Assembly: GCA_050733935.1 (NCBI GenBank)
Contig: JBOHUC010000098.1
Location: 11,033-75,032, forward strand
Origin: Candidatus Eiseniibacteriota bacterium
Lineage (GTDB): Bacteria; Eisenbacteria; RBG-16-71-46; DASYSL01
Direction: 5' to 3'
DNA: 64,000 bases
Positions 29,120 through 57,043 of this stretch are shown here, one piece after another. The translations under genes and the position numbers were made by a program. Every line of letters starts with the position of its first letter. The stretch's first letter is position 1. The notes below the pieces were generated by a model. That model was not told the DNA's origin and made no database searches. It saw only the letters and a list, made by a program, of their open reading frames with translations.

Positions 29120-31105
29120 ATGCGAACTTTCCCTCTTTCTACACGTCCATCGTCGTTCCCGTGGGCACTCCTCGGGATCCTCGTGGTCCTCGCGCAGACC
29201 GGACCGTCCCGAGCGGACGCTCCGGGGAACACTTACCTCTCGGAGCCGCACTTCGGATCTCCACCGGGATCGAGTGCTGTGCTTGCCGCGGGGAACGTCC
29301 GTCTGCGGGCGACCAACCAGGGATACATCGGCAAGCTGTCGACGGATCCGGCTTCACCTCCGGCGGCGCAATGGCCGGGTCTTTCGGGCGTGGAGTTTCT
29401 GGGGGCGATTCACCTTGCCGTTGCTGCAAATGATCCCTTCCAGGTTGACCCGGCGCTTCTCAGGCGAACGAGCTACTCGACAGAGTGGCAGCCTCCGACT
29501 CTGAGCGCCGAGGACTCGATTCGTTCCGCGCTTGCCGGCGCGCCGGGCAGCGAACGTTTCTTCGACGACGATGGCGACACGCGCGTCGATGAAGAATTTC
29601 TGGACGGCCGGGACAACGATTTCGACGGCATGATCGACGAAGACTATGCCGCGATCGGTGATCAGATGCTCGCGTGGACCATGCGCGACGACACGGCCCC
29701 GCCCGGGCCTCTTCACATACCGCTCAATCTCGAATGCACACAGCGCGTATGGGCGTTCAACCGTCCGGGTTTCTCGGACTTCGCAGTCATCGAATACACG
29801 ATTCGCAACGTCTCGGGTCATACGCTGGACAGCCTGGCGATCGGATGGATGGTGGATTTGAGTTGCGGGCCCAAGAATCAGCCTGGCGGATACGCGAACG
29901 ACGATGTCACGCTCCCCGTGTTTCCTTCGGGCTCGTTCCTGCTCGTGCCCGACCCTTCGGACCCACGGCGGCAGCACCCGCACGATCCGGCTCTCAACTC
30001 GTTCGTGCCGGCGGAGTCAGTCCTGTGCCCGAGATTCCCGGTTCGCGCGCGCGGGTTCTCGGTGGCCGATGTCGACGGGGACAACGGCTCGACGCCCGCG
30101 ATCGCAACCTTCCTGGTCGTCGATCACACCATTGACGCAACGGGCCTAAGGGCCCCCCAAAAGGTCGGACTTCGAGCGTTTCGACACAGCGTCATGGGCA
30201 CCCCGCCCGGGATGGGCGGCCTGCCCACCACTGATGGTTCCCAGTACCTGCTCATGACCGGGACGCAGGGGGTCGACCCGTTCACCGGCATGCCGAACGC
30301 CGCGCTCACGGGCGTTGTCGGTGATCAGGTCGCCATGTGTTCCGTGGGGCCTTTCCTCCAAGTGGAGGATGGGAGGAGCATCCAGGCCACGATTGCCGTG
30401 GCCGTTCAGACGGGCAACTATCCGACGGCACTGCAGTACCAGACGGATCGCTTCTTCTACGAGAACGGATTCATCCATCGCGGGGAACTGTTCCAGAAGT
30501 ATCCCTCTGCCGAAGTCGTGTTCAACGTGGGGACAGCGCTCGAAGGGGACAACGTGCCTGCACCCTCCGGATTTCCTGTTCCCGACCTGCACGGCCGTGA
30601 GGTAAGCCTCATTGCCCCGATTGGTGAGGAGTTCGAGGCGTCCGATTGTAGAGACCTTGCGAACGAGTCGACCCGCACCGTTCACGATGACAGGTACACG
30701 TGGTTCGATTTCGACTGCGATTTCTGTACAGGCGTCTACGACTATCCATCGCGCACGGGGCTGCTTCATCGCTCTTGGACACTTCCGCCGTCGCTGTTGA
30801 TCGGCGCCGAGCCTGCCCCCTCAGGCATGCCGATCCGGGTCGGTCAGGTCATGCCCAACCCGGCCCGCGGAAATTCCCGCGTGGATCTCGACTTGCCCCG
30901 GGCCCACGCCGTGACAGCAGCGATCTACGACGTCTCGGGACGACAGGTAAGGGAAGTCGTGAATGCCATGCGGCCGGCAGGGGGGAGCCAAATCGTGTGG
31001 GACGGCCGTGACGGCGGTGGAAGGGAAGTCCCTCCGGGCCTGTACTATCTGTACGTCCGGATCGGAGAGGAATCCGTCGTTCGCAAGGTGATCCGGGTCC
31101 ACTGA
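29120..31105 (+). CDS. Secreted protein with an acidic Ca-binding-like D-rich motif and a C-terminal T9SS/FlgD-Ig-like sorting domain
   Basis: Signal peptide 'FPWALLGILVVLAQTGPSRADA'; 'DDDGDTRVDEEFLDGRDNDFDGMIDEDY'; C-terminus 'MPNPARGNSRVDLDLP...AAIYDVSGRQVREVV...WDGRDGGGREVPPGLYYLYVRIGEESVVRKVIRV'. Confidence 0.7.
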   Translation: MRTFPLSTRPSSFPWALLGILVVLAQTGPSRADAPGNTYLSEPHFGSPPGSSAVLAAGNVRLRATNQGYIGKLSTDPASPPAAQWPGLSGVEFLGAIHLAVAANDPFQVDPALLRRTSYSTEWQPPTLSAEDSIRSALAGAPGSERFFDDDGDTRVDEEFLDGRDNDFDGMIDEDYAAIGDQMLAWTMRDDTAPPGPLHIPLNLECTQRVWAFNRPGFSDFAVIEYTIRNVSGHTLDSLAIGWMVDLSCGPKNQPGGYANDDVTLPVFPSGSFLLVPDPSDPRRQHPHDPALNSFVPAESVLCPRFPVRARGFSVADVDGDNGSTPAIATFLVVDHTIDATGLRAPQKVGLRAFRHSVMGTPPGMGGLPTTDGSQYLLMTGTQGVDPFTGMPNAALTGVVGDQVAMCSVGPFLQVEDGRSIQATIAVAVQTGNYPTALQYQTDRFFYENGFIHRGELFQKYPSAEVVFNVGTALEGDNVPAPSGFPVPDLHGREVSLIAPIGEEFEASDCRDLANESTRTVHDDRYTWFDFDCDFCTGVYDYPSRTGLLHRSWTLPPSLLIGAEPAPSGMPIRVGQVMPNPARGNSRVDLDLPRAHAVTAAIYDVSGRQVREVVNAMRPAGGSQIVWDGRDGGGREVPPGLYYLYVRIGEESVVRKVIRVH

Positions 31106-41386: not shown

Positions 41387-41403
41387 GCGGGGGACGCGCG
41401 ACC

Positions 41404-42254: not shown

Positions 42255-42272
42255 GGAATCCTCCTTTCGACC

Positions 42273-42473
42273 TCAGCGCTCTGCATCTTCTTCGAACACT
42301 TCCTCGATTCGCTTCCCGAACAGCCGCGCGATCCGAAACGCGAGCGGCAAGCTCGGGTCGTACTTTTCGGTCTCGATCGCGTTCACGGTCTGGCGTGACA
42401 CGCGGAGCCGGCTGGCCAAGTCTCCTTGAGACCACTCGCGCGCGGCCCGCAGCGAGCGAAGGTGGTTCCTCAT
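42273..42473 (-). CDS. XRE-family HTH transcriptional regulator (YozG-like)
   Basis: 'LRAAREWSQGDLASRLRVSRQTVNAIETEKYDPSLPLAFRIARLFGKRIEEVF'. Confidence 0.75.
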   Translation of the reverse strand: MRNHLRSLRAAREWSQGDLASRLRVSRQTVNAIETEKYDPSLPLAFRIARLFGKRIEEVFEEDAER

Positions 42474-42483
42474 CGCCGCCGCG

Positions 42484-42879
42484 TCACCGGTAACGTCGGT
42501 GGCTGATCAGGAGCCCGATCGCCCACAGCCCGCACATCACCGGCCACACGATCGTGCCCCACTCGATGTCCGGAAGCCCCGCGCCGACCAGGAACCCGTA
42601 GCCGGTCGCGAGAATCCCCGTGCCGCCGAAGCTGAACGCGAGCGCCTCGAGATGCATGCGCTGCTGGAGCTCGTCGAGGCGCCGGATGGAGCTGAACATT
42701 CCGAGGATCAAGGCGGCCGAAGCGGCGCCTTGAACGAGGGCGACCGCAATCCGTCCCGGTGATTCCTTGGGCATCGTCTTTCCGAGAAAGGCGCCGCCGA
42801 GGATGATCGCGGCGATGACGAGCGCGAACGCCAGGAACCGCGGGTCTTCGCAGGACCAGATACTGCGCTTTTCGTTCAT
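42484..42879 (-). CDS. Hypothetical membrane protein (partner of the YozG-like regulator)
   Basis: 131 aa, 4 TM. Sits 10 nt upstream of the XRE gene. Confidence 0.5.
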   Translation of the reverse strand: MNEKRSIWSCEDPRFLAFALVIAAIILGGAFLGKTMPKESPGRIAVALVQGAASAALILGMFSSIRRLDELQQRMHLEALAFSFGGTGILATGYGFLVGAGLPDIEWGTIVWPVMCGLWAIGLLISHRRYR

Positions 42880-42946
42880 GCCCGGGACTGTAAAGGATCC
42901 TTGTCAGGCTGTCAAGCGTGCTTTACATGGTCGGCGGGCTCGGCGC

Positions 42947-43090
42947 AACTTGCCCCGGGGCAACCTGCTGCGCAGCAACCTGGGGGTCCGCCAACTTGCC
43001 GCAGGGCAACCTGCTGCGCAAGCAACCTGGGGGTCCCCCAACTTGCCCCGGGGCAACCTGCCGTGCGGCAACCTGCCCGTGGAGCAACCC
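42947..43090. repeat. Three imperfect tandem copies of a roughly 46-bp unit, with 'GCAACCTG' occurring six times, in the divergent intergenic region upstream of lepB
   Basis: Units start at 42947, 42992 and 43039 (CAACTTGCC...GGCAACCTGCTGCGCA(A)GCAACCTGGGGGTCC). Read directly from the sequence. Confidence 0.85.
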
Positions 43091-43106
43091 TGCTATCCTG
43101 CTTTCC

Positions 43107-43715
43107 GTGAACCCCACCGCGAGCCGCGCCCGGAAGCGAATACTCGAACTCCTCGTGATCGGAGCCGCCGTGCTCCTTCAGTTCGCGGCGCGCTCGTCGC
43201 TCGCGGATCACTACATCGTTCCCACGGGCTCGATGGAGCAGACGATCCACCCTGGCGACCGCATCCTGGTCGACAAGAGGGCCTACGGCCTGCGGGTGCC
43301 CTTCACGCGACTCGAGCTCGTTCCGGGCGCCCGTCCTGCGCGGGGCGAGATCGCGGTGTTCGATTCCCCGGAGAATGGTATCCGGCTCATCAAGCGCGTG
43401 GTCGCGATCTCCGGCGACGTGGTCGAAGTGCGAAAGGGCCGGGTGATCGTGAACGGCAAGCCGCTCGCGCTCCCTCCCGACGGACAGCACGAGCGCTTCG
43501 GCGCGCGCACCTCGGACCTCGAGCTCTGCTTCGGCGGTGGACCCGACATCGGACCGGTGCGGGTGCCCGACGGCTCGGTGCTCCTCCTCGGAGATGCGCG
43601 TGGGAACAGCCGCGATGGCCGCACGTTCGGCTTCGTCCGGGAGGACCGGCTCTACGCGCGTGCGATCTCGGTCTTCTTCCGAACTGACCGGGGATTCGTC
43701 TGGCAGACGCTGTGA
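43107..43715 (+). CDS. lepB: Signal peptidase I
   Basis: TM 'ILELLVIGAAVLLQFAA', catalytic Ser box 'PTGSME', Lys box 'LIKRVVA', 'GDARGNSRDGR'. Start GTG at 43107, downstream of the repeats. Confidence 0.8.
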   Translation: MNPTASRARKRILELLVIGAAVLLQFAARSSLADHYIVPTGSMEQTIHPGDRILVDKRAYGLRVPFTRLELVPGARPARGEIAVFDSPENGIRLIKRVVAISGDVVEVRKGRVIVNGKPLALPPDGQHERFGARTSDLELCFGGGPDIGPVRVPDGSVLLLGDARGNSRDGRTFGFVREDRLYARAISVFFRTDRGFVWQTL

Positions 43716-44443
43716 CCGCCGACCGCGCCGACCGCGCCGACCGCGCGCGTCGCGTGGCCGGCATCATCGGCGGCATCGGCCCCGAATCGACGCTCGACTA
43801 CTACCGCCAGATCATCGACCGCTACCGCGCTCGCGCGGGGAACGGCCGATACCCCCACGTCCTCATCAACAGCATCGACGCCGAGACCGTCGTCCCGCTC
43901 GTCCTGGCCGGGGAGCTGCCGCGGCTTGCCGAAATCCTGTCGGCCGAGGTCGAGCGGCTCGCGTCCGCCGGGGCGACGTTCGCCCTCCTCGCCGCGAACA
44001 CGCCGCATATCGTGTTCGATGACCTGAAGGCGCGCTCGCGGATCCCGCTCTTGAGCATCGTCGAGGCAACCGCGGACGCCGCGCGGGCGCGCGGACTCAC
44101 GAGGCCCGCGCTCCTCGGCACGCGCCCGACGATGCAGGGGCGCTTCTTCCCGGAAGTGTTCCGGAAGGCGAGCCTCGATCTCGTGGTTCCGCGCCCCGAC
44201 GAGCAGGAGGTGGTGCACGAGATCTACATGGTGGAGCTGTTCCGCGGCGTGTTCCGGCCAGAGTCGCGCGAGCGGATTTGTAACGTGATGGATCGGCTCG
44301 CAGCCGAAGAGAGAGCCGACAGCGTCATTCTGGGCGGCACCGAGCTTCCGCTCCTCATGCGTGAAGTCGAACACCGGACGCCGCCGTTCCTCGACACGAC
44401 GAAAATCCACGTCGAGCGGATCGTGGACGAGCTTTTGTCCTGA
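43712..44443 (+). CDS. Aspartate/glutamate racemase family protein
   Basis: 'IIGGIGPESTLDYY', 'LLAANTPH', 'ILGGTELPLL'. The 5' end contains a 9-bp x3 repeat encoding 'ADRADRADRA'. Confidence 0.8.
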   Translation: MTADRADRADRARRVAGIIGGIGPESTLDYYRQIIDRYRARAGNGRYPHVLINSIDAETVVPLVLAGELPRLAEILSAEVERLASAGATFALLAANTPHIVFDDLKARSRIPLLSIVEATADAARARGLTRPALLGTRPTMQGRFFPEVFRKASLDLVVPRPDEQEVVHEIYMVELFRGVFRPESRERICNVMDRLAAEERADSVILGGTELPLLMREVEHRTPPFLDTTKIHVERIVDELLS

Positions 44444-44476
44444 TCCGAAGCGCTCCTGGCCTGACGAGCGGGTAGA

Positions 44477-44929
44477 GTGTCCTCCATGGAACCCCGGTTG
44501 AGCTTTCTCACGCTCGGCGTACGCGACATGACGCGCGCGACGCGCTTTTATGCGGACGTTCTCAAGCTTCCGCCCGTTCGGATCGGAGAGGACATCGCGT
44601 TCTTCGAGCTCGGGAAGACGTGGCTTGCGCTCTATCCGCGCGAGCTCCTTGCGGCCGATGCGGGCGTCCCGGCCGACGCGGGCATTTCGGCGGTCGCGGC
44701 TGAAGGCCCGGGCTTGGGCTCGGTCTCAGGCTTCCCGGGGTTCACGCTCGCGCACAACGTGCGCTCCGAGGCCGAAGTGGATGCGCTCCTCGCGGAGGCG
44801 GTCGCGGGCGGCGCTCGGCTCGTGAAGGCCGGCAAGAGAGCGGAATGGGGCGGATACAGCGGCTACTTCGCCGATCCCGATGGATTCCTGTGGGAGATTG
44901 CGTGGAATCCGAAGTTCCCGCACGTATAA
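44477..44929 (+). CDS. VOC family protein
   Basis: 'LSFLTLGVRDMTRATRFYADVL...GYSGYFADPDGFLWEIAWNP'. Confidence 0.7.
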   Translation: MSSMEPRLSFLTLGVRDMTRATRFYADVLKLPPVRIGEDIAFFELGKTWLALYPRELLAADAGVPADAGISAVAAEGPGLGSVSGFPGFTLAHNVRSEAEVDALLAEAVAGGARLVKAGKRAEWGGYSGYFADPDGFLWEIAWNPKFPHV

Positions 44930-45106
44930 AGCACGAGTCACGCTCGTGTCCGCATATGCATCGTCCGGAGGCACAGCTTCCGTCCTTGCCTTGACCGTCC
45001 GGGTTCCATAGAATCGTCGTCGCTCGACATCCCCCGGATTCAACCCCCCCCCGAAGACAGTTCGTCCCCCCCTTGATCTCGCCGGCCGACTGCGGGGGGA
45101 AAGCTC

Positions 45107-48100
45107 TTGCTGCGACGTTTCGTGCTTCTCCTGTTCGCGCTCGTCGTGCCGGCCGCAGTCGCAAGCGCCGTCACGCTCCCGCCTGATTTCTTGGTCGAGA
45201 ACGCCACGCCCGGCATCGGGTGGACGCTTCCGGTTGAAGTCGCATTCCTGCCCGACGGACGTTGGCTCGTGGCCGAGAAGCGCGGCCGCGTCTGGGTGGT
45301 GCGAAACGGCGTGCGTCACCCGGTTCCGATGTGGGAGGGGGAGAGCGAGGTCCTGAACCATCACGATCGCGGGCTCCTCGGGCTCGCCGTCGATCCCCAC
45401 TTCGACACGAACCGTTTCATCTACCTCCTCTACACGGTCGATCCCGACTCGAACGGCGACGACTCGTTCGGGCCCGCGTTCGGGCGCCTGACGCGCTACC
45501 AGGTGAGCGCGAGCGATTCGAACGTGGTCGACCCCGCAACGCGCACGGTTCTCCTCGGGCAAACGTGGGCCGAAGGTCCGCTCGCCGCCTCCCCCTCGCA
45601 CACGATCGGCTGTCTGCGCTTTGGTACCGACGGGTCGCTCCTCGTCGGCACGGGCGACGGCGCGAACTACTCCGATGCCCCCGACGACGGAGGCGACTAT
45701 CCGGACGCGTTCCTGCCGGGCCGCACCGATCCGGTCGAAGACATCGGCGGGCTTCGATCGCAGTACCTGGGGAGCCTGGCCGGGAAGATCCTCCGCATCG
45801 ATCCTGCGACCGGGCACGGTTACCCGAGCAATCCGTTCTTCGACGGCGATCCGATGTCGGTGCGGTCGCGCGTGTGGCTCTACGGCGTGCGCAATCCGTT
45901 CCGCTTCGCGGTGGAGCCCGGCTCGGGCAGCACGAATCCCGCCGACGGTGCTCCGGGGGTGATCCACTTAGGCGACGTCGGATGGGCGCTGTGGGAGGAG
46001 CTCGACATCGCGACCACCGGGGGGAAGAACTTCGGGTGGCCGTGCTATGAGGGTCCGATCCGGCAGAACAAGTACTGGGCGCCTCTCTCCACGCCGGCGC
46101 ACTGTCCGTGCGACTCGATCGCACTTTCGTTCCATGATCCGGCGGACACGACCCGTCCGGTGTCGACCTGGTACCACTACGAACCGGAGCCGGGGATTCC
46201 CGGCGGATTCGAGGGGCAGACCGCGCTCGGCGGGACGTTCTACACCGGACGCCGTTATCCGCCGCAGTACCGGAATCGCCTCTTCATGGGGGACTTCGGA
46301 TCGAGCTGGATCAAGGTGCTGGTCACCGATTCGCTCTATCGCCTGAACGCCGTTCTCCCGTTCGCCGATCAGGCGGACTTCCCGGTCGAGATCGCGGCCG
46401 AGCCGATCTCCGGCGACATCCTCTACATATCGATCAGCCACAACGAGATTCGCCGTATCCGCTACGTGGGGCCGGTGGACAACGTGTCGCCGGTCGCCGT
46501 CGCGGGCGGCGCGCCGTCGTTCGGAGGTGCTCCGGTCGCGGTCGAGTTCTCGAGCGCGGGGACGAGTGACGCGGAGAACGACAGCCTGAGCTTCGCGTGG
46601 CTGTTCGGGGACGGCGACGGATCGAGCGATCCCCATCCGACCCACGTCTACGAGTCGCCCGGCGTCTTTGCGGCCGTGCTCACGGTGACGGATGCGTTCG
46701 GCGGACTCGACCGCGACACGGTGATCGTGACCGTCGTCTCCGGGGAGGGTTTCCCGACGAAGGTCGTGCTCGACAGCTTCGATCGCGCGGACGAGCCGCT
46801 CGGACCGCCGTGGACGGACGACCTTACTGCGCTCGCGACTGTCGCAAACCGCCTTTCGGTCGGCGCCGCCTCGGGCGGAAACGCGAGTGCCCTCTGGGAC
46901 GACTCGATGTTCGGTCCCGTGCAGGAGGCGTTCGTCACCCTGCACGAGCTTCCCGGCGGAACGGGTGCGATCGAGCTCGTGCTGCAGGCGCAGGGAGTCG
47001 AGAGCGGTGACGGATACCTGGGCGTCCGCTACGAGCCGTCGAACGATGCGATCCAGATCCGAACGAGCGAACCGGGGTTCGACCCGGTCGTGCGCGCGAC
47101 GTTCGAGGCCGTGGGCCTGGTCGCAGGCGACCGGCTCGGTGCGCGCACCGGGACTGACGGCCTCGTGGGGGTCTACCGGAACGACGAGCTCCTTGGCGCT
47201 GCGTCCGTCGAGGGCTTCTGGCCGCACGCCGACGAACCGGGACGCATCGGACTCCGCTTCGAGAAAGCGACCGGAGCCGTGGTCGATGATTTCGGCGGAG
47301 GCGGCTCGCTCTTCGTTCCGAACACGCCGCCCGTGGCCGCGATTCTCACGCCGCCCGACAGCTCGTTCTTCGCGGAAGGGGACACCGTGCGCTTGATCGG
47401 CTCCGGTGTCGATGCGTTGACGTCTGCCGACAGCCTCGACTTCATCTGGGAAGTCGACACTCATCACAACGAGCACACGCATCCTTCGTCCTTCACGCTC
47501 GAAGGCGACAGTGCGTTCTTCCTCGGGGAGTCGCACGACGATGGGAGCGGCGTGTACCTCCACGTCCGGTTCATCGTGGCCGACTCGGCGGGACTCGCCG
47601 ACACGGCGTCGGTCGATCTCTTTCCGGAGGCGGACCTCCGGCCGACGATCGTCTCGGCCCTGCCGGAGTCGGTCGCGGCGGGGGACTCGCTGTTCGTCAC
47701 GCTCCGGCTTGCGAACGACGGCCGTATGCTCGCGCATCGCTCGCGCTGGCGGCTCGATCTCGGCGGCGTGCTGCTCGCCGAGGGCGACACGACCGTGAGC
47801 GGCGGGGACAGCGTCTCGATCGCGCTTGCGATCGGAAACCTGCCTGCGATCGCTCCCGGCGCGCGGGCCCTTCGACTGGTGGCCGATGCGCTCGGAGTCG
47901 TCGTCGAAACCGACGAGACCGACAACGAGAGCGCGCTCTTTCTCTATGTTCGGACGCCGCCGGATGCGGAGCCGCCGAATCTCACGCTCCTCTTCCCGAA
48001 CGGGGGCGAGGCGTGGCCGCTCGGAGCCGTGCACAGCGTCCTGTGGAGCGCCTCGGACAACACGGGGGTCACGGCCGTCACGGTCGAGCTCTCGCGCGAC

Positions 48101-49165
48101 GGGGGAAACACGTACGCGCTCCTCGACTCGGGCCTTGCTCATACCGGCGAGCTCGAGCTCGTCGTCACCGGCCCGGCCAGCGATTCGGTCCTCGTGCGCG
48201 TCACGGCGCGCGATGCCGCGGGCAACACGAGCATCGACGTGAGCGACGTGTACTTCGCGATCGTGGTCGACGAGAAGACCCCTGCGGTCTTTCTGCTCTC
48301 GCCGAACGGCGGTGAAGCGTGGCCCGTGGGATTCGCGCGGACGATTCGCTGGACCGCCGAGGACCACGTGGGCGTCACGGCGATCGATCTCTTCGTCTCC
48401 TATGACGACGGCGAGTCCTATGCCGAGATCGCCGAGGGGTTGCCCGATACGGGCGAGCACGATTGGGTCGTGGCCGGGCCGCTCACGGCCTCTGCCCGGA
48501 TCCAGATCATTGCCCGCGACGCAGTCGGGAATGCGGCGGCGGACGCGAGCGACGCGGCGTTCTCGCTCGTCGACGGAACCCCGCCTGCGTTCACGCTCGG
48601 GCCGACCGCCACGCCGAACGAGGCCGACGCGGCGATCGCGTGGCAAACCGATGAATTGGCCACGGGTTGCGTGCGCTGGGGACTCACCGGCTCGTTCGGC
48701 GACTCGACCGAGACGGCCTCCCCGAGCCTCGGCCAGGCCGTGAATCTGACCGGGCTCACCCCCGAAATGACGTATCATTATTGCGTCGTTGTCCGCGATA
48801 CGGCCGGCAACGTGGCCGTCGCCGCCCCGGACTCATTTACAACCCTCGCGAGCACCGTCGCCGCCGACCCGGCGCCGCATACGCTCGCGCTTTCGAACCC
48901 CTATCCGATCCCGGCCCATGGACACGTCTCGCTGGTTCTCGACCTCCCGCAGCGTTCGACCGTGGACTTCGCCGTCTACGACGTGCGGGGCCGTCGTGTC
49001 TGGTCGAGCGCGCGTTACTCCCGCGAGCCCGGGCGCTGGTTGCTGGAATGGCAGGGCCTCGACGACCGTGGCGCCCGCGTTCCGGCCGGTGTCTATCTCG
49101 CGTGCGTGACCGCAAACGGGCGGCTCTTGAGCCGGCGGATCACGCTCCTTTCCGGGGAGCGTTAG
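45107..49165 (+). CDS. Giant secreted protein: glucose/sorbosone-dehydrogenase-like beta-propeller, PKD domain, CARDB/FN3-like Ig repeats, and T9SS/FlgD-Ig C-terminal domain
   Basis: TTG start and signal peptide 'MLRRFVLLLFALVVPAAVASA'. GSDH-like 'AFLPDGRWLVAEKRGRVWVV...HHDRGLLGLAVDP'. PKD 'FGDGDGSSDPHPTHVYESPGVFAAVLTVTD'. C-terminal domain 'LSNPYPIPAHGHVSLVLDLP...FAVYDVRGRRVW...GVYLACVTANGRLLSRRITLL'. Confidence 0.8.
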   Translation: MLRRFVLLLFALVVPAAVASAVTLPPDFLVENATPGIGWTLPVEVAFLPDGRWLVAEKRGRVWVVRNGVRHPVPMWEGESEVLNHHDRGLLGLAVDPHFDTNRFIYLLYTVDPDSNGDDSFGPAFGRLTRYQVSASDSNVVDPATRTVLLGQTWAEGPLAASPSHTIGCLRFGTDGSLLVGTGDGANYSDAPDDGGDYPDAFLPGRTDPVEDIGGLRSQYLGSLAGKILRIDPATGHGYPSNPFFDGDPMSVRSRVWLYGVRNPFRFAVEPGSGSTNPADGAPGVIHLGDVGWALWEELDIATTGGKNFGWPCYEGPIRQNKYWAPLSTPAHCPCDSIALSFHDPADTTRPVSTWYHYEPEPGIPGGFEGQTALGGTFYTGRRYPPQYRNRLFMGDFGSSWIKVLVTDSLYRLNAVLPFADQADFPVEIAAEPISGDILYISISHNEIRRIRYVGPVDNVSPVAVAGGAPSFGGAPVAVEFSSAGTSDAENDSLSFAWLFGDGDGSSDPHPTHVYESPGVFAAVLTVTDAFGGLDRDTVIVTVVSGEGFPTKVVLDSFDRADEPLGPPWTDDLTALATVANRLSVGAASGGNASALWDDSMFGPVQEAFVTLHELPGGTGAIELVLQAQGVESGDGYLGVRYEPSNDAIQIRTSEPGFDPVVRATFEAVGLVAGDRLGARTGTDGLVGVYRNDELLGAASVEGFWPHADEPGRIGLRFEKATGAVVDDFGGGGSLFVPNTPPVAAILTPPDSSFFAEGDTVRLIGSGVDALTSADSLDFIWEVDTHHNEHTHPSSFTLEGDSAFFLGESHDDGSGVYLHVRFIVADSAGLADTASVDLFPEADLRPTIVSALPESVAAGDSLFVTLRLANDGRMLAHRSRWRLDLGGVLLAEGDTTVSGGDSVSIALAIGNLPAIAPGARALRLVADALGVVVETDETDNESALFLYVRTPPDAEPPNLTLLFPNGGEAWPLGAVHSVLWSASDNTGVTAVTVELSRDGGNTYALLDSGLAHTGELELVVTGPASDSVLVRVTARDAAGNTSIDVSDVYFAIVVDEKTPAVFLLSPNGGEAWPVGFARTIRWTAEDHVGVTAIDLFVSYDDGESYAEIAEGLPDTGEHDWVVAGPLTASARIQIIARDAVGNAAADASDAAFSLVDGTPPAFTLGPTATPNEADAAIAWQTDELATGCVRWGLTGSFGDSTETASPSLGQAVNLTGLTPEMTYHYCVVVRDTAGNVAVAAPDSFTTLASTVAADPAPHTLALSNPYPIPAHGHVSLVLDLPQRSTVDFAVYDVRGRRVWSSARYSREPGRWLLEWQGLDDRGARVPAGVYLACVTANGRLLSRRITLLSGER

Positions 49166-52100
49166 GGCTCGTTATCGCGCTGACCGCCCTACCCGTTCTC
49201 CTCCTCACGCGCGACAGCACCGGGCAGAGCTTCCCGCCGAACTTCACGCACGAGAACGCGACGCCGGGCCTCACCTGGGTCCTTCCGACGACGCTCGACT
49301 TCCTGCCCGATGGCCGCTGGCTCGTGGCCGAGAAGCGCGGACGCGTGTGGGTCGTGAAGAACGGCGTGAAGCACCCGACTCCGTTCTGGGACGGTGCCTT
49401 CGAAGTGCTCGATCAGCACGACCGCGGGCTCCTCGGACTCGCCGTCGATCCGAACTTCGCGACCAACCGCTACGTGTACTTCCTCTACACAGTGGACCCG
49501 GACTCGAATCAGATCGACGACTCGGCGCCGGGATTCGGCCGTCTGACGCGCTATCAGATGAGCGCGACGGACTCGAACGCGGTCGATCCCGCGTCGCGTA
49601 CGGTCCTGATGGGGGCGACGTGGCGGGAGGGCCCGGTGTCCGCGTCCGAGTCCCACACGGTCGGAAGCGTGCACTTCGGCGCCGACGGCTCGCTCCTCGT
49701 GAGCTGCGGGGACGGCGCGAACTTCGGCTTCACGCCCGACATCGGCGGCGAGCACCCGTTCGCGTTCCTGCCCGGGCGTGCGGACTCCTCGGAGGACATC
49801 GGCGCGCTGCGATCGCAGTACCTGGGAAGCCTGTGCGGGAAGATCCTCCGCATCGATCCCATGACCGGTCACGGTTATCCCACGAATCCATTCTGGGACG
49901 GGAACCCGATGTCCGTGCGCTCCCGCGTCTGGCAGTACGGCTTGCGCAATCCGTTCCGCTTCACGGTCGAGCCGGGCACCGGCAACAGCGATCCTGCGTT
50001 CGGAGATCCGGGGATCCTCCACATCGGAGACGTCGGCTGGCGCCAGTGGGAGGAGCTCGACATCGCCGCCGAAGGCGGAAAGAACTTCGGCTGGCCGTGT
50101 CGCGAGGGTCCGCGGCGGCTCGACGAGTACTGGCCGCCGAATCCGCAGCCCTCGCACTGCGGGTGCGATTCGCTCGGGCTCACGTACCACAATCTGGCGG
50201 ACACGACCGGGCCGGTGTCGACGTGGCACCACGATTTCCAGAGCTTGAGCATCCCCACCGGGATCACGGGAATCACCGCCGTGGGCGGGACGTTCTACAA
50301 GGGGCGTCGTTATCCGGCGCAGTACCGCGACCGGCTCTTCATGGCCGACTACGGGTACAACTGGATCAAGGTGCTCGAGACGGATTCGCTGCATCATCTG
50401 ACCGGAGTGCTGCCGTTCATGTCGGGGATCGACGGGCCCGTCGACATCGTCCGCGAGCCGGGAAGCGCGGGCGATCTCCTCTACGTGGCCATCGTCGACA
50501 GCGAGATCCGCCGCATTCGATACACGGGCCCGGTCGACAACCTTCCGCCGAATGTGTTCGCGAGCGTGAATCCAACGTTCGGAGTCTCGCCGCTCACGGT
50601 CAACTTCTCGTCGGCGGGCACGAACGATCCCGAGGGGGACAGCCTGAGCTACGTGTGGCTGTTCGGGGACGGGGAGGGCTCGACGGAACCGAATCCCGTG
50701 CACGTCTACCAGAATCCCGGGCTCTACCTCGCGCTGGTCACCGTGACCGATACGTTCGGGGGTCTCAACCGGGCCGTGGTCTTCGTTCCGGTCTCGAATC
50801 CGGCCCCCTTCCCTTCGACGGGGATCCTCGACGCGTTCAACCGTCCGGACCAATCGCTCGGGCCTCCGTGGACGGACGATCTCGCGGCTCTTCGGGTCGC
50901 GGGCAACCGGCTCACCGTGACTTCGGGAGGCGGTGGCGGAGGCGGCAACGCGAGCGCTCTGTGGGACGCGACGATCTTCGCGTCCCGGCAGGAGGTGTTC
51001 ACGAGGCTCGTGACGCTGCCGCCCGCCCCCGGAAAGTTCGAGCTCATGGTCCAGGGTCTGGGAAGCGAGAGCGCGGACGGGTACGTCGGCGTGCGCTACG
51101 ACGTCGGACCGCAGAAGCTCGAGATTCGAACGATCGCGCCCTCGGGAACGGTGACCGTGCACCGCGTGTTCGCGCCAATCGTGTTCGCTCCCGGAGACCG
51201 GATCGGTGTTCGCACCTCCGGGGACGGCATCGTGGCCGTCTACCGGAACGCCGAGCTCGTCGCGGCCACGACGCTCATCGACTGGCCGTACTCGCAGCTC
51301 ACCGGGCGGATCGGCGTGCGCTTCGAGAACGCCTCCGGAGCCGTGCTCGATGACTTCGGGGGTGGGTCCGTGCCGCTCGTTCCGAACTTTCCTCCCTCCG
51401 CGACGATTCTCGCTCCGCCCGACAGCTCGTTTTTCGTCGCGGCGGACACGGTCCACCTTTCGGGAACGGGCACGGATCCGAACACGCCGTCCGACAGTCT
51501 TTCGTACCTGTGGGAGGCGGATCTCCACCACAACGTGCACGTCCATCCCAACGTGTTCCACCTCACCGGGAGAGACACCTCCTTCGTGGGCGAGAACCAC
51601 GACGACGGAACGGGCGTCTACCTGCACGTGCGCTTCATCGTGTCCGATCCGGCCGGGCTCGCCGACACCACCGCGATCGACCTGTTCCCGGAGGCGGATC
51701 TCAAGCCTTCGATTGCGATCGTCGTCCCCGAGACGCTCCACGTCGGGGATCCGCTCGGGGCCGTGTTCCGCATTGCGAACCCGGGGCGGATGCTCGCGCG
51801 GCGCTCCCACTGGCGGCTTACGTTCGGGGACTCGCTGCTCGCCGAGGGAGACGTCATCGTGCCGCCGCGGGATTCCGTGTCGTTCTTCCGCGGGTTCCCG
51901 TCGACGCCCTTGATCGCACCCGGCCCGCGTGAGCTGCGGCTGGTCGTGGATGCGAACGGCGAGGTCGTCGAGACCGACGAGACCAACAACCACGCCGTCG
52001 ATTCGCTCTTCGTCCGTCCGGTCCTCGATCCCGTGCCGCCCATCGTGGTCCTCCTCGCGCCGGGAGGGGGCGACGGGTGGCCGATCGGCTCCATGCAGTC

Positions 52101-52953
52101 CGTGCGCTGGAGCGCCACGGACAACATCGGAGTCACTGCGATCGCGATCGAGCTCTCCCGCGACGCGGGTGCGTCGTTCGCCGTCCTCGATTCGGGGCTC
52201 GCGCACTCGGGTCATCACGAGTTCCTCGTCGAGGGTCCTCCGTGTGACTCGGCGGTCGTTCGAATCACGGCCCGCGACGCGCAGGGGAACCTCGCGTCCG
52301 ACACGAGCGACGGGATGTTCCAGATCATGTTCGACGAGAAGTCGCCGTCGGTCTTTCTGGTCACGCCGAACGGGGGCGAGGCGTGGCACAAGGGAAGCGT
52401 GCACCCGCTCCAGTGGATTGCGCAGGACAACGTGGGCGTGACTCGCGTCGATCTTGCGGTGAGCTACGACAACGGAGGCTCGTTCGTGCCGATCGCGACC
52501 GGCCTCCCGAACACCGGTGCGTACGGCTGGTACGTGGAGGGCGCGCTCACGAGCCTCGCGCGCATTCAGGTGGTCACATACGACGCCGTCGGCAACGCCG
52601 CCGCCGATCAGAGTGACGGGCCGTTCACGATTCTCGAAGGCATCGTAGGAACGGAGCCCGTCCCGTTCGTGCCGACGGTGCTCGCGCTCTCGAATCCGTA
52701 CCCGAGTCCTTCGCGGGGGCGCGTGTCGCTCGTGCTCGATCTTCCCGCCCCCGCGAACGTGAGCCTCGACGTGTACGACCTGCGTGGCCGCCGCGTGTGG
52801 TCGGGACCGTCGGGGATGCGGGAGGCGGGCCGGTGGACGCTCGACTGGCCCGGTCGCACCGAGGCGGGCGCACGCATGGCTCCGGGCGTCTATCTTGCGC
52901 TCGTGACCGCAGATGGCCGGGCGATGAGCCGCCGGATCGTAGTCCTCGACTGA
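49048..52953 (+). CDS. Tandem paralog of the preceding giant secreted GSDH-PKD-T9SS-CTD protein
   Basis: Same domain order, with roughly 60-70% identity by eye. The start is uncertain: ATG at 49048 overlaps the previous gene by 118 nt, with GTG at 49102 as an alternative. Signal-like 'LGLVIALTALPVLLLT'. Confidence 0.75.
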   Translation: MAGPRRPWRPRSGRCLSRVRDRKRAALEPADHAPFRGALGLVIALTALPVLLLTRDSTGQSFPPNFTHENATPGLTWVLPTTLDFLPDGRWLVAEKRGRVWVVKNGVKHPTPFWDGAFEVLDQHDRGLLGLAVDPNFATNRYVYFLYTVDPDSNQIDDSAPGFGRLTRYQMSATDSNAVDPASRTVLMGATWREGPVSASESHTVGSVHFGADGSLLVSCGDGANFGFTPDIGGEHPFAFLPGRADSSEDIGALRSQYLGSLCGKILRIDPMTGHGYPTNPFWDGNPMSVRSRVWQYGLRNPFRFTVEPGTGNSDPAFGDPGILHIGDVGWRQWEELDIAAEGGKNFGWPCREGPRRLDEYWPPNPQPSHCGCDSLGLTYHNLADTTGPVSTWHHDFQSLSIPTGITGITAVGGTFYKGRRYPAQYRDRLFMADYGYNWIKVLETDSLHHLTGVLPFMSGIDGPVDIVREPGSAGDLLYVAIVDSEIRRIRYTGPVDNLPPNVFASVNPTFGVSPLTVNFSSAGTNDPEGDSLSYVWLFGDGEGSTEPNPVHVYQNPGLYLALVTVTDTFGGLNRAVVFVPVSNPAPFPSTGILDAFNRPDQSLGPPWTDDLAALRVAGNRLTVTSGGGGGGGNASALWDATIFASRQEVFTRLVTLPPAPGKFELMVQGLGSESADGYVGVRYDVGPQKLEIRTIAPSGTVTVHRVFAPIVFAPGDRIGVRTSGDGIVAVYRNAELVAATTLIDWPYSQLTGRIGVRFENASGAVLDDFGGGSVPLVPNFPPSATILAPPDSSFFVAADTVHLSGTGTDPNTPSDSLSYLWEADLHHNVHVHPNVFHLTGRDTSFVGENHDDGTGVYLHVRFIVSDPAGLADTTAIDLFPEADLKPSIAIVVPETLHVGDPLGAVFRIANPGRMLARRSHWRLTFGDSLLAEGDVIVPPRDSVSFFRGFPSTPLIAPGPRELRLVVDANGEVVETDETNNHAVDSLFVRPVLDPVPPIVVLLAPGGGDGWPIGSMQSVRWSATDNIGVTAIAIELSRDAGASFAVLDSGLAHSGHHEFLVEGPPCDSAVVRITARDAQGNLASDTSDGMFQIMFDEKSPSVFLVTPNGGEAWHKGSVHPLQWIAQDNVGVTRVDLAVSYDNGGSFVPIATGLPNTGAYGWYVEGALTSLARIQVVTYDAVGNAAADQSDGPFTILEGIVGTEPVPFVPTVLALSNPYPSPSRGRVSLVLDLPAPANVSLDVYDLRGRRVWSGPSGMREAGRWTLDWPGRTEAGARMAPGVYLALVTADGRAMSRRIVVLD

Positions 52954-53048
52954 TCCGGACGGAGCCCGGTGGTATAGTCCGGATTGCTCCGCAAAGACCC
53001 CCCGCGCGGACCCCACCCGAGCGAACCCAATCCCTGGGAGGCTTTTCC

Positions 53049-53729
53049 ATGAACGGAAGCTCGAAGTCGTTCGTGCGCGTTTTCGTGTTCGGCGTGCTCT
53101 GTCTGGCCCTGACGGCCGGCGGCGCGCTCGCGGATACGCAATCGGACAAGGACAAAGCGGCGGCGGCCGCCAAGCAGACCGCGCAGACCCCGCCCGCGAT
53201 GGACGCCGCCATGCAGGCCCAGATGGCGGAGATGGTGAAGCTCGGGACACCGGGCAAGCCCCACGAGCAGCTCAAGGCGATGGAAGGCACGTGGAACGCG
53301 GACGTGAAGTCGTGGATGGGTCCGGGCGAGCCCACGGTGTCCAAGGGAACGATGGTCAACAAGATGATCCTGGGAGGCCGGTTTCTCGAGTCCCGGTATT
53401 CCGGGAAGTTCCTCGACCAGACGTTCGACGGCGTCGGCCTGACGGGCTACGACAACAAGAAGAACGAGATCATCACGCTGTGGCTCGACAGCATGGGCAC
53501 GTCGTGGATGATGCAGAACGGCAAGTGGTCGGCCGACGGCAAGGAGATTCAGGTCAGCGGCACGGCCGATGGGTTCGACGGCAAGCCCACGACGTTCACA
53601 TCGACGACCAAGGTCGTGGACAACAACAAGCACGTGTACACGATGAGCACCATGATGGGCGGCAAGGACACGCCGGTCATGGAGATCACGTACACGCGGG
53701 CGTCGGGAACCACCGCCGCCGGTCAGTAG
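53049..53729 (+). CDS. Secreted DUF1579 family protein; intact paralog of the amber-interrupted gene at 3198..3647
   Basis: Signal peptide 'FVRVFVFGVLCLALTAGGALA'. 'LKAMEGTWNADVKSW...' matches the DUF1579 pattern. Confidence 0.7.
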   Translation: MNGSSKSFVRVFVFGVLCLALTAGGALADTQSDKDKAAAAAKQTAQTPPAMDAAMQAQMAEMVKLGTPGKPHEQLKAMEGTWNADVKSWMGPGEPTVSKGTMVNKMILGGRFLESRYSGKFLDQTFDGVGLTGYDNKKNEIITLWLDSMGTSWMMQNGKWSADGKEIQVSGTADGFDGKPTTFTSTTKVVDNNKHVYTMSTMMGGKDTPVMEITYTRASGTTAAGQ

Positions 53730-53819
53730 TCGGGCAGTCGTGCGCAATCTTGCGATGGGGGTGGGCGCGGACTATTCTCACGCAGTCCGTTCCACCCCAA
53801 CGCAGGAGCGCGCAATTCC

Positions 53820-54581
53820 ATGAGCCACGCGACACAGCCTTCGTCCCATCCGTCCGCCAAGCCTTCCGCACAGCCTTCCACGCCTAAATCGGCCGATCTC
53901 CGGCGCCAGTTCGTCTCGTTCTACGGGCTCAAGCTCTCGCCCGCCTGGCGGGGGCTCTCCGCCGAGGCGAAAGCGCAGGCCAAGCGCGAGTTCGTGGCGG
54001 CCTGCGAGAGCTTCAAGGCCGAGGGCGGGATCCTCGTTCCGTACTCGTGTGTGGGCATCCGCGGGGACGTGGACGTCATGCTGTGGCGCATCCATCACGA
54101 GCTCGAGCCGCTCCAAAGGCACGGCGCGGCCCTCATGCGCACGTCGCTTGGGCCCTATCTGGCCACGCCGTACGCGCTCCTCGGGATGACCAAGCGCTCG
54201 ACCTACGTGGATCACATTCATCCCGACCACGAGGACGACCGGCTCAAGATCGTGCCCGGGCTCCTCAAGTACATCTTCATCTACCCGTTCGTGAAGACCC
54301 GGGAGTGGTACGGGCTCGACGCGGAAACGCGCCAGAAGATGATGCGCGAGCACATCCACATTGGAACGACCTACCCGTCGGTCAAGCTGAACACGACCTA
54401 TTCGTTCGGTCTCGACGACCAGGAGTTCGTGGTCGCGTTCGAGAGCGACCGGCCCGACGACTTCCTCGATCTCGTCCAGGACCTGCGCGAAACCGCCGCG
54501 AGCCGGTACACGTTGCGCGACACTCCGACATTCACGTGCGTGCGGCACGAGCTCGCGACCGTGCTCGATACTGTCGGCTGA
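53820..54581 (+). CDS. Chlorite dismutase family protein (HemQ/coproheme decarboxylase-like)
   Basis: 'FVSFYGLKLSPAWRGLSAEAKAQAKREF...', 'HIHIGTTYPSVKLNTTYSFGLDDQEFVVAFESDRPDDFLDLVQDLR'. Confidence 0.75.
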   Translation: MSHATQPSSHPSAKPSAQPSTPKSADLRRQFVSFYGLKLSPAWRGLSAEAKAQAKREFVAACESFKAEGGILVPYSCVGIRGDVDVMLWRIHHELEPLQRHGAALMRTSLGPYLATPYALLGMTKRSTYVDHIHPDHEDDRLKIVPGLLKYIFIYPFVKTREWYGLDAETRQKMMREHIHIGTTYPSVKLNTTYSFGLDDQEFVVAFESDRPDDFLDLVQDLRETAASRYTLRDTPTFTCVRHELATVLDTVG

Positions 54582-54594
54582 TCGCCCGGCGGGG

Positions 54595-55272
54595 TTGCAT
54601 GCCATGAGTGGTGTTCAGGATCGACTGCTGAACTTTCTGCTTGGTTGGGCCCTCCTGACGGCAGCCCTGCCGACCCTGATTGTCTATCGCGCAGCCATGC
54701 AACCGCGATACCAGTGGGGTCTGTTCGGTATCGTCGGAGAAGGAGTGACGCCTGGCCTCCTGGTCATCGCCGCTGCGGCCATTCTGGCGTGGTCCGCGGT
54801 CGTGCTCGGTAGCGTGAGAACCCACGCAGGCGGACTTCTTCTGATCGGGCTCAACGCGCTGTGGTTTACTTCTATCCTGGTTGCGGCGCTTCGATTGGGA
54901 TCGCAGATGACGTTGCGTGGCGATGCCTACGGCATACGAATCAATTTGGCGATTCTGGGGCCTCTCGTATTCGGGGCGCTGCTGCTCTTGAGCATTCGCT
55001 GGTGGTGGACACGACGACAAAACCTGGTCGGCTTCGAGGCCTTGTCCACATTGAAGGTGACCCTGACGTCAGGAGCGCGTCGCGTCCTCTGCGTGGCAGC
55101 GGTCGCCCTGTTGCCTGTCATCCTTGTTCTCTTCGCGATCGGCGATGGTGCTCGTCACACCTGGGCTGACCGAGTGGCAGTCGGTTGTGTCATTGTGCAG
55201 TGTCTGTGTGTCCTTGCTGCGTTGCGTGACGCCACGGTGGACACGGTCCGCTCGCCTGTGGTGGCGGCCTAA
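54595..55272 (+). CDS. Hypothetical integral membrane protein (6 TM)
   Basis: Hydrophobic helices with diverse composition. Confidence 0.5.
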   Translation: MHAMSGVQDRLLNFLLGWALLTAALPTLIVYRAAMQPRYQWGLFGIVGEGVTPGLLVIAAAAILAWSAVVLGSVRTHAGGLLLIGLNALWFTSILVAALRLGSQMTLRGDAYGIRINLAILGPLVFGALLLLSIRWWWTRRQNLVGFEALSTLKVTLTSGARRVLCVAAVALLPVILVLFAIGDGARHTWADRVAVGCVIVQCLCVLAALRDATVDTVRSPVVAA

Positions 55273-55309
55273 CAACTCGGCCGCTCGCACCTGAGCAGGA
55301 GACGTTAAG

Positions 55310-55435
55310 CCCGGGGGACGAGTCGTCTCTCTCAGGGGTCCGTACAATTTGTACAAGCTTGTACGCGCGTACGCTCACGTACGGTCGCGTACAAATTGTA
55401 CAAGCCCGTGGGAGAGACCCCTTCACCCCCGGGCT
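55310..55435. repeat. About 125-bp nested imperfect palindrome rich in GTAC-containing sub-palindromes, lying between convergent genes
   Basis: Outer arms GCCCGGGGG / CCCCCGGGC. Inner 13-bp arms GTACAATTTGTAC / GTACAAATTGTAC are exact reverse complements. Central perfect palindrome GTACGCGCGTAC. GTAC occurs eight times. AT-rich core in a 69% GC genome. Confidence 0.8.
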
Positions 55436-55464
55436 TTACATTGGGTCCAGCCGGGCCCAGCCGG

Positions 55465-56175
55465 CTACTTCAACGTCTGTCCGGGCTCGAGCGCGACGAT
55501 CTCGGTCTTCGTGCCGGCCGTGAGGTGTCGCCGGAGCTCGTCGGGCGTGCCGGTGAGCGGCGGAAACGTGCCGTAGTGCATCGGGACCACCCAGCGCGGC
55601 CCGAGGAGCTCGATTGCCTTCGCCGCTTCGCGCGGTCCCATCGTGAAGAGCCCCCCGATCGGCAGGCAGGCCACGTCGGGCGCGTAGAGCTCGCCGATCA
55701 GCCGCATGTCCCCGAACACGTTCGTGTCGCCCGCGTGATAGATGCGGAAGCCGTTTTCGAGCGTGACCACGAAGCCGCAGGCCTCGCCGCCGACCAGGAC
55801 CCCCTTCGAGCCGTTGATTCCCGAGGAGTGATCCGCGTGCACCATCTGCACCTCGAGCCCGGCCACGGTCTGCGATCCGCCTTTGTTCATCGGCCGGATG
55901 TTCTTCGCGCCCTCGTTCTCGAGCCAGAGACAGATCTCGAACATGCCCGGGATCTCGGGCTGATGCTTCCGGACGAGGTCGGGGGCGCTCCCTGCATGGT
56001 CGGCATGACCGTGGGTGAGGAGCAGCATGTCCACGCGCTCGAACGACTTCCAGCGATCGGGACATTTCGGATTGTCGATCCAGGGGTCGAACAGGACGTG
56101 CTTGCCGCCGGGGGTCTTGAGGTGGAACGCCGCGTGGCCGAGCCAGGTGAGCTCGAAATCCTTTCCGATCGTCAT
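55465..56175 (-). CDS. Metal-dependent hydrolase, MBL fold (UPF0173 family)
   Basis: 'LTHGHADH' (HxHxDH) and 'IYHAGDT'. Confidence 0.8.
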   Translation of the reverse strand: MTIGKDFELTWLGHAAFHLKTPGGKHVLFDPWIDNPKCPDRWKSFERVDMLLLTHGHADHAGSAPDLVRKHQPEIPGMFEICLWLENEGAKNIRPMNKGGSQTVAGLEVQMVHADHSSGINGSKGVLVGGEACGFVVTLENGFRIYHAGDTNVFGDMRLIGELYAPDVACLPIGGLFTMGPREAAKAIELLGPRWVVPMHYGTFPPLTGTPDELRRHLTAGTKTEIVALEPGQTLK

Positions 56176-56232
56176 GAACGCCTCCGGGACAGGGGGCCGT
56201 CACCCTAACCCGTGAGCGGAAAAACGACCACA

Positions 56233-56267
56233 AAACCGAAGGCCTCCTCGAAAGGAGGCCTCGGTTT
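56233..56267 (-). terminator. Rho-independent terminator of the repeat-protein gene
   Basis: Perfect 15-bp stem AAACCGAAGGCCTCCT/AGGAGGCCTCGGTTT with a 4-nt loop. On the minus strand it is followed by UUUUGUGGUCGUUUUU. Confidence 0.65.
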
Positions 56268-56307
56268 CGGGCTCAAAGAGGTGCTGTCGAAGGTGCGGCC
56301 CTGAATC

Positions 56308-56775: not shown

Positions 56776-57043
56776 TTTGACTACCTCCTCTTTGAGTGAC
56801 CGGTGAATCCTCCGGAGCTGGCTGGGGGGTGAGCTTCCGGATTCGACCGAGATTTAACGCATCGGCTGTGCCACATCTGCCCTTGCCGACGTGCCCACCC
56901 CGCAACCACCAACCAAACCTTGGTTTAGGAGATTCGCTGGGATTGTTCCGCGGCCCTGAGACCCACCGGCCCGGCGGGGATTTCCCGAGAAGACGAGGAA
57001 AACCGTTGGGGAAATCCCCAGCTCACCTTCGGGCCCAACGAAT

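Follow-up and report, generated by a model that had tools for sequence, protein, structure and literature searches.

We report that a 64,000-nucleotide (nt) stretch of a Candidatus Eiseniibacteriota genome (GCA_050733935.1, contig JBOHUC010000098.1; hereafter the window, to which all positions refer) carries an old, diverged, lineage-specific tandem duplication of a gene encoding a multi-domain protein, the two copies of which we call A and B. The explanation that best accounts for the data overall, and which we hold with moderate confidence, is that the duplicated protein is secreted, being exported through a Sec signal peptide and a C-terminal domain resembling that of type IX secretion system (T9SS) cargo, and that its N-terminal propeller oxidizes sugars. 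New here are a corrected 5' end for gene B, folds for some 300 residues of each protein, the partial loss of the canonical ligands of pyrroloquinoline quinone (PQQ) and a propeller-PKD-HxxHxH core found across phyla.

Both proteins follow the same order: a signal peptide, a GSDH-type propeller, a PKD domain, a lectin-like jelly roll, a PKD-like domain with a histidine cluster, a CARDB domain, two immunoglobulin (Ig)-like domains and a type A T9SS-like C-terminal domain. A adds an FN3-like domain ahead of the C-terminal domain. The two genes and their domains are as follows (aa, amino acids).

45107..49165, forward strand: gene A, TTG start, 1352 aa
A aa 1-21, forward strand: Sec-type signal peptide, MLRRFVLLLFALVVPAAVASA followed by VT
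45170..46471 (A aa 22-455), forward strand: GSDH-type six-bladed beta-propeller, Pfam GSDH 96.8 bits
46472..46741 (A aa 456-545), forward strand: PKD domain, PKD_4 55.9 bits, matching the PKD domains of ColH and ColG in the PDB
46742..47305 (A aa 546-733), forward strand: ConA-like lectin jelly roll, from AlphaFold2 and Foldseek
47306..47641 (A aa 734-845), forward strand: PKD-like Ig sandwich with the histidine cluster H787, H790, H792 and H810-D811-D812
47642..47950 (A aa 846-948), forward strand: CARDB-like Ig domain, Pfam CARDB 24.0 bits
47951..48577 (A aa 949-1157), forward strand: two Ig-like repeats ('GGEAW...DAxGN'), weak Big_7 and Kre9_KNH matches
48578..48856 (A aa 1158-1250), forward strand: FN3-like domain (Pur_ac_phosph_N-like), Pfam score 21.8 bits (cutoff 30, not reached)
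48893..49162 (A aa 1263-1352), forward strand: C-terminal sorting-type domain (FlgD_ig / T9SS type A-like)
49102..52953, forward strand: gene B, 1283 aa (GTG 49102 start) or 1301 aa (ATG 49048 start)
49228..50529 (B aa 43-476), forward strand: GSDH-type propeller, Pfam GSDH 100.3 bits, 68% identical to that of A
50530..51369 (B aa 477-756), forward strand: PKD domain, then lectin-like jelly roll
51370..51705 (B aa 757-868), forward strand: His-cluster PKD-like domain with H810, H813 and H815
51706..52641 (B aa 869-1180), forward strand: CARDB-like domain and two Ig-like repeats
52684..52950 (B aa about 1195-1283), forward strand: T9SS type A-like C-terminal domain

Both reading frames have the composition of real genes. 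Third-position GC (GC3) is high, 0.85 in A and 0.83 in B, in a window whose GC content is 64-69%, and the long minus-strand open reading frames (ORFs) that cross the region are shadow ORFs. The TTG start of A has GGGGGGAAAG directly upstream, and the frame of B is open from 48667 to its stop at 52951-52953. The original prediction, made from the sequence without database searches, had described two giant genes of about 1,350 aa; this length holds for A, B is shorter, and 'giant' overstates the size of either. A second assembly contains both genes: contig CDHSSG010000022.1 (GCA_975254425.1) is 99.985% identical to window positions 39324-58979, with three differences, a single one of them within A and B, and carries an identical 1352-aa gene call for A. 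The difference within the pair, G>A at 51592, changes E831 of B to K in the His-cluster domain, directly before a conserved N-H-D-D motif.

The GSDH, PKD, CARDB and Ig-like domains that had been predicted were recovered with Pfam and NCBIfam models. GSDH (PF07995) scores far above its cutoff of 25 in both proteins, as does PKD (PF18911/PF00801; 55.9 and 56.6 bits, cutoff 27), and CARDB (PF07705) is borderline, at 24.0 bits in A and 23.9 in B for a cutoff of 22.7. The FN3-like domain of A also precedes the C-terminal domain in several other homologs (PF16656). The CARDB, Ig and FN3 modules would serve as a stalk.

A and B are paralogs along their whole shared length. BLASTP aligns them with 679 identities over 1143 positions (59%, E = 0), and the identity of individual domains is 68% for the propeller, 57% for PKD, 50% for the lectin-like domain, 62% for the His-cluster domain, 54% for CARDB, 56% for each of the two Ig-like domains and 60% for the C-terminal domain. 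The pairwise alignment thus bears out the tandem paralogy that had been proposed, and the peptide blocks quoted in its support occur in both proteins. Similarity confined to linkers is ruled out, every folded domain being 50-68% identical. The shared domains keep the same order, as claimed. The only large difference in a global alignment is a clean 89-aa gap, where the FN3-like domain of A (aa 1158-1250) has no counterpart in B: a single domain has been cleanly lost from one copy or gained by the other.

At the DNA level, the copies are 69.7% identical across 3466 nt, their longest exact match is 24 nt, and they show no conversion tracts, which together indicate an old duplication and exclude recent gene conversion between them. 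The 'ongoing diversification' read into the pair was therefore an overstatement. A and B are reciprocal best hits, with propellers 67.5% identical to each other and at most 60% identical to any other homolog, and the 'GGEAW' Ig-like repeat pair is, among 120 homologs, common to these two only, which places the duplication within the lineage and after acquisition of this module. The possibility that the pair is an assembly artefact, which would have undone the original prediction, deserves practically no credence: we found no point in its favor, copies this divergent in DNA and without a longer common word do not look like a misassembly, GCA_975254425.1 shows the identical arrangement, and tandem paralogs also occur in six other loci of the propeller family.

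The case for an enzyme lies in the propeller, the residue conservation of which was scored over 87 ORFs from 80 related loci in many phyla. A family profile finds the structures 2ISM, 3A9G, 2G8S (YliI), 7CDY and 1C9U (soluble glucose dehydrogenase, sGDH) and, more weakly, HHIP; hhalign matches the propeller to E. coli YliI with a probability of 99.2%. In the alignment to sGDH 1C9U, H165 corresponds to the catalytic base His144 and R262-N263 to Arg228-Asn229, and these three residues are conserved in 81, 87 and 84 of the 87 ORFs, respectively. Together with R266, V291, G292, E297, W311 and E315, they make up a set conserved in 81-87 of the ORFs, and an invariant cysteine pair (C313 and C335) lies in the loop that follows the NFGWPCxEG motif. 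Conservation of the nine residues of this set across phyla makes the propeller pocket look like a maintained active site.

The closest characterized relatives are the soluble PQQ-dependent glucose and aldose dehydrogenases of the same propeller superfamily (PF07995), namely A. calcoaceticus sGDH (1C9U), E. coli YliI/Asd (2G8S) and the Thermus (2ISM) and Pyrobaculum (3A9G) enzymes, with which A and B have in common the GK(I/L)LR and N(Y/F)GWP motifs, the catalytic histidine and the Arg-Asn pair, at a weak level of sequence relation (E 1e-12 to 1e-22 with the family profile). Unlike these enzymes, which are periplasmic proteins of about 350-450 aa, A and B have a Cys-bridged loop insertion after GWPC and a propeller joined to some 900 aa of extracellular modules plus a sorting domain.

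Several observations weigh against a PQQ-dependent enzyme. The equivalents of the sGDH residues Gln231 and Gln246 are replaced in the A/B family by F/Y265 and V291, RNPQG becoming RNP(F/Y)R and EQGP (Gln246, Gly247, Pro248) becoming D-V-G-W. The blade-6 R-x-R motif (RIRDV in YliI) is replaced by P-V-[D/E/Q/S] in 87 of 87 ORFs (P-V-D/E in A/B), and neither plausible alignment, in a C-terminal region where alignment is of low reliability, offers an Arg counterpart to the YliI motif. This motif is presumably R406-Y-R408 of sGDH. Arg408 has been placed near the sGDH C terminus (PMC6881789), consistent with that numbering. The Pfam GSDH match is limited to profile positions 3-224 of 332, and TIGR03606, the sGDH/Asd subfamily model, gives 37.3 and 44.2 bits for a cutoff of 434.55. 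Neither pqq genes nor a cytochrome or other electron-acceptor partner were found among the roughly 45 Pfam-annotated ORFs of about 60 in the window, and an all-against-all comparison of flanking ORFs from the 80 loci yields no neighbor family in more than six, those that recur being of housekeeping type. E. coli uses YliI without making PQQ. The redox role suggested in the original prediction is accordingly not established: H165, R262 and N263 speak for it, the replaced glutamines and R-x-R motif and the subfamily scores against it.

A rearranged cofactor site has a precedent in the AA12 structure, in which a PQQ-binding arginine comes from a different, non-homologous sequence position (PMC6881789). 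As judged from its residues, the propeller would make the protein an enzyme of the GSDH superfamily in which the catalytic triad known from PQQ dehydrogenases is combined with a rearranged cofactor site; PQQ dependence is plausible. We propose that this six-bladed propeller, with its strongly conserved polar pocket, would most likely oxidize sugars or aldoses by means of a PQQ-type cofactor whose binding would be non-canonical.

The same propeller could instead bind a ligand without catalysis, as that of vertebrate HHIP does, which would make the proteins surface adhesins or lectins; to this we assign a low but appreciable probability. In its favor, the family has lost two glutamines as well as the canonical arginines for the PQQ carboxylates, adhesion-type domains abound in the architecture, neither pqq genes nor a redox partner are encoded nearby, and HHIP propellers are detectable relatives (E about 1e-9 with the family profile). 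HHIP is a vertebrate ligand-binding protein with an extracellular GSDH-superfamily propeller that lacks PQQ, and its alignment to the A/B family covers the N-terminal blades only. An adhesin does not readily explain why 81-87 of 87 ORFs across phyla retain the catalytic histidine and the Arg-Asn pair, residues in contact with the PQQ quinone oxygens, and with them the invariant charged residues R266, E297 and E315; such a pattern fits an active site better than a binding surface.

Between the PKD and CARDB domains lie about 300 aa without a Pfam match even at E up to 5, a stretch that the original prediction had missed and that comprises a ConA-like lectin module and the His-cluster PKD-like domain. 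AlphaFold2 models it from a 24-sequence alignment with a predicted local distance difference test (pLDDT) score of 91.8. The best Foldseek match of the lectin-like half in the PDB is CBM66 (4B1M; E 1.6e-6, template modeling (TM) score 0.64-0.69, 14-18% identity), followed by galectins, GH16 enzymes and toxin receptor-binding domains. CBM66 is a fructan-binding module. A hidden Markov model (HMM) of the lectin module, run on the 87 propeller ORFs, recovers it in the Eisenbacteria type only, save for one hit in a Chloroflexota locus (L077). The modeled fold suggests that this insert points to glycan targeting, and in the Eisenbacteria branch the ConA/CBM66-like module is inserted into the propeller-PKD-His core.

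Modeled alone, the His-cluster domain reaches a pLDDT of 89.1, and its closest fold is the PKD-like domain of ColG (4AQO; TM score 0.85, root-mean-square deviation 1.9 Å); Foldseek against the PDB returns generic PKD and Ig matches, none below E 1e-3 and no known metal site. H787, H790 and H792 (HxxHxH) are invariant in the 57 His-cluster domains outside the Eisenbacteria type, H810 is kept in 43 of these 57, and W781, D769 and D826 are conserved as well. About 62 of the 87 ORFs, spread over all phyla, encode the domain alongside the propeller, and in most homologs it follows the propeller at a fixed spacing of 80-89 aa, equal to one PKD domain; the gap widens to 276 aa in the Eisenbacteria type owing to the lectin insert. 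Propeller, PKD and HxxHxH domains thus form a three-part core conserved across phyla. The His-cluster domain, which has no Pfam model, follows the propeller in this way in the related loci L013-L081. A profile search of 1.84 billion representative sequences gives 2588 proteins at E 1e-10 or better, and these revealed no independent context for the domain: the top matches are giant repeat proteins aligned to the generic N-terminal half only, and the short full-length matches are mostly fragments of the same propeller family.

The invariance of the histidine cluster suggests a metal site. One could go further and make the core a metal-dependent enzyme, in which the histidine trio binds Cu, Zn or Fe as a catalytic or electron-transfer center that replaces PQQ or works beside it. 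We regard this as quite unlikely. Its appeal lies in the strict retention of H787, H790 and H792 in other phyla (57 of 57, with H810 in 43), in the fixed distance from the propeller and in a domain that has no Pfam model and matches no known metal-site fold; yet the fold is a generic PKD/Ig sandwich, its N-terminal half resembles common repeat Ig domains, and histidine clusters may also be structural.

The closest analogs of A and B in logic are the fungal AA12 enzyme CcPDH of Coprinopsis cinerea and the GSDH-CBM proteins (CBM, carbohydrate-binding module) of Teredinibacter turnerae, in which a secreted GSDH propeller is likewise combined with CBMs; T. turnerae secretes its GSDH-CBM proteins on cellulose (PMC12055684). 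Their electron acceptors are built in, as cytochrome b or c domains, and their CBMs are of known families (CBM1, CBM5 and CBM10); in A and B there is no cytochrome, and the propeller is accompanied by a CBM66-like lectin fold, an HxxHxH Ig domain and, at the C terminus, a domain of T9SS type. We give little credence to the bolder proposal that the cross-phylum core is a new class of extracellular quino-/metallo-oxidoreductase and the bacterial counterpart of AA12, which in Eisenbacteria would also carry a lectin module and be the substrate of a T9SS active outside Bacteroidota.

Putative export signals lie at both ends of the proteins. By inspection, A has a Sec signal with RR, a hydrophobic core and an ASA site followed by V; in B, provided that it starts at 49048 or 49102, a hydrophobic core precedes a TGQS site, and homologs are alike. 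From these sequence features, A and B would cross the inner membrane via a Sec signal peptide. The T9SS/FlgD-like C-terminal domain that had been predicted is present in both proteins; B exceeds the curated cutoffs, with 25.9 bits for TIGR04183 (cutoff 23) and 32.9 for FlgD_ig (cutoff 27), and A falls below both at 19.1 and 22.0 bits. An HMM of the family's own C-terminal domain scores 107.5 bits in A, 115 in B and 78 in one further ORF of the window.

29120..31105, forward strand: unrelated 661-aa ORF with the same C-terminal domain, FlgD_ig 34.7 and TIGR04183 30.5 bits

This ORF has no other Pfam domain and encodes a putative secreted protein. Its presence shows the C-terminal domain to be a modular tag in this genome. 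Among the related loci, this form of the domain is found in Eisenbacteria-type contigs only, where it also ends seven unrelated ORFs; Bacteroidota members of the propeller family carry canonical T9SS type A C-terminal domains (32-44 bits), and two Planctomycetota members that we tested have no TIGR04183 domain. This distribution fits a lineage-matched sorting tag. Like Bacteroidota T9SS type A cargo (TIGR04183 / Por_Secre_tail), A and B have at the extreme C terminus a domain (70-90 aa in such cargo) with PNP, D..GR.V and G.Y motifs; theirs differs in being a longer, FlgD_ig-like variant and in its host, Candidatus Eisenbacteria. By homology, the 85-90-aa domain would direct export across or onto the outer membrane. 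The sub-threshold TIGR04183 score of A counts against this, as do the lack of T9SS components among the roughly 45 annotated ORFs of the window and a literature search that found no link between Eisenbacteria and T9SS. A literature search for GSDH with T9SS likewise returned nothing relevant.

The start of gene B lies in a compressed junction, and here the ambiguity noted in the original prediction proved exact.

49048..49165, forward strand: A/B overlap zone, with the candidate starts of B inside the 3' end of A and the A stop TAG at 49163-49165

The sole in-frame ATG, at 49048, overlaps A by 118 nt, the alternative GTG at 49102 by 64 nt, and no ATG, GTG or TTG occurs in the B frame between 49102 and the signal-peptide core. 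This core, ALGLVIALTALPVLLL, is followed by TRDSTGQS and then, past the cleavage site, by FPPNF; long basic n-regions ahead of the signal core are also seen in homologs. Translation of B would have to start inside the 3' end of A. The NCBI call for B in GCA_975254425.1 (1209 aa, starting with VAEKRG at 49324, or L001:10001) can be rejected, as it would remove the signal peptide and the first propeller strand, both of which are present in 20 of 20 homologs inspected, and the public annotation of B is therefore clearly truncated at the N terminus by at least 74 codons. Starts after the A stop, at ATC 49174 or CTG 49180, are unlikely, since the signal peptide would then have no n-region.

In other tandem pairs of the family, the downstream gene has its own start after a spacer of about 100-300 nt, which makes the compressed A/B junction peculiar to this locus; here the usual spacer seems to have been lost at the duplication junction. 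The signal core of B begins only about five codons after the A stop, and the A C terminus, RRITLLSGER* (window 49138-49165), extends about three residues past the usual family ending of RR plus five residues.

44986..45014, forward strand: sigma-70-like site TTGCCT-17-TAGAAT, a promoter consensus match 93 nt ahead of gene A

Two sigma-70-like consensus sites were found in the region, where 0.6 are expected. B has no such site ahead of it, and nothing resembling a terminator lies at the junction of the two genes. To judge from these signals, the pair is probably transcribed together, and the simplest reading is co-transcription in which B is initiated weakly or in a coupled manner. Telling against efficient initiation, neither ATG 49048 nor GTG 49102 has a good Shine-Dalgarno motif, and such motifs are present at many window genes. 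It is very unlikely, in our view, that B is decaying, having been deprived of a start and a spacer of its own at the duplication junction, and is untranslated or translated only poorly. The missing canonical start after the A stop, candidates buried 64 or 118 nt inside A with no Shine-Dalgarno motif, the normal spacers and starts of other tandem pairs and the truncated NCBI call would all suit such decay; the gene itself does not, its frame being intact over at least 1283 codons with a GC3 of 0.83, all family-invariant residues (the His, the Arg-Asn pair, the His cluster and the C-terminal-domain motifs) being kept and its C-terminal domain outscoring that of A, and the long basic n-region is shared with homologs.

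The family to which the pair belongs is large, already annotated but uncharacterized, and centered on Eisenbacteria. More than 1800 database proteins match A at E 1e-10 or better among 8000 candidates scored; the named ones are annotated as 'PQQ-dependent sugar dehydrogenase' or 'glucose/arabinose dehydrogenase/PKD repeat protein', and the best non-self matches are 44-53% identical. A scan of one genome per species for NFGWPCxEG together with WxYGxRNP[FY]R finds at least 597 loci, of which the closest are in Eisenbacteria (49-58%), followed by Planctomycetota (40-45%), with further members in Bacteroidota, Chloroflexota, Acidobacteriota, Actinomycetota and others. Tandem copies of two or three genes occur in six other loci (L003, L008, L018, L023, L027 and L042), from Eisenbacteria, Planctomycetota, Bacteroidota and Acidobacteriota, among them three copies in a planctomycete and two in the cultured Engelhardtia mirabilis Pla133, and arose there independently. 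One contig labeled Candidatus Udaeobacter (L007, DATJEP010000152.1) encodes a member of Eisenbacteria type, 49% identical, with the lectin insert and the Eisenbacteria-type C-terminal domain, and a second ORF on it ends in that domain too; this contig may be mis-binned.

The genes around the pair are unrelated to it: those upstream encode a cupin, a polysaccharide deacetylase, a helix-turn-helix regulator, signal peptidase I, an Asp/Glu racemase and a glyoxalase, and those downstream a DUF1579 protein, a chlorite-dismutase-like protein and a metallo-beta-lactamase hydrolase. The RsmA encoded in the window matches, with 100% identity, an NCBI protein assigned to a Candidatus Eisenbacteria metagenome-assembled genome. 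Elsewhere in the window, a 1037-aa protein with tetratricopeptide repeats and a CHAT domain (18718-21831, minus strand) lies beside an ORF with a sigma-70 region 2 match (22708-23610, minus strand); a 709-aa ORF (23476-25605, plus strand) is an apparent fusion of GrpB (aa 12-170) and a type-B carboxylesterase (aa 203-524); and HlyD-type membrane-fusion genes occur three in a row at 57044-62401 (minus strand), with products of 674, 704 and 411 aa, of which the first bears an N-terminal GAF domain.

Taken together, the present result is mainly a correction of annotation: the public entry for B is cut short, and some 300 residues in each protein had gone without a domain assignment. The C-terminal-domain data lend indirect support to T9SS-type sorting in a phylum of the Fibrobacteres-Chlorobi-Bacteroidetes (FCB) group beyond Bacteroidota. 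If the proteins are a new type of surface-bound sugar oxidoreductase, this would bear on the way in which uncultured soil and sediment Eisenbacteria, and likewise many Planctomycetota, Acidobacteriota and Chloroflexota, attack extracellular glycans. With thousands of members in the family and several homologs in cultured organisms, enzyme discovery in it would be testable.

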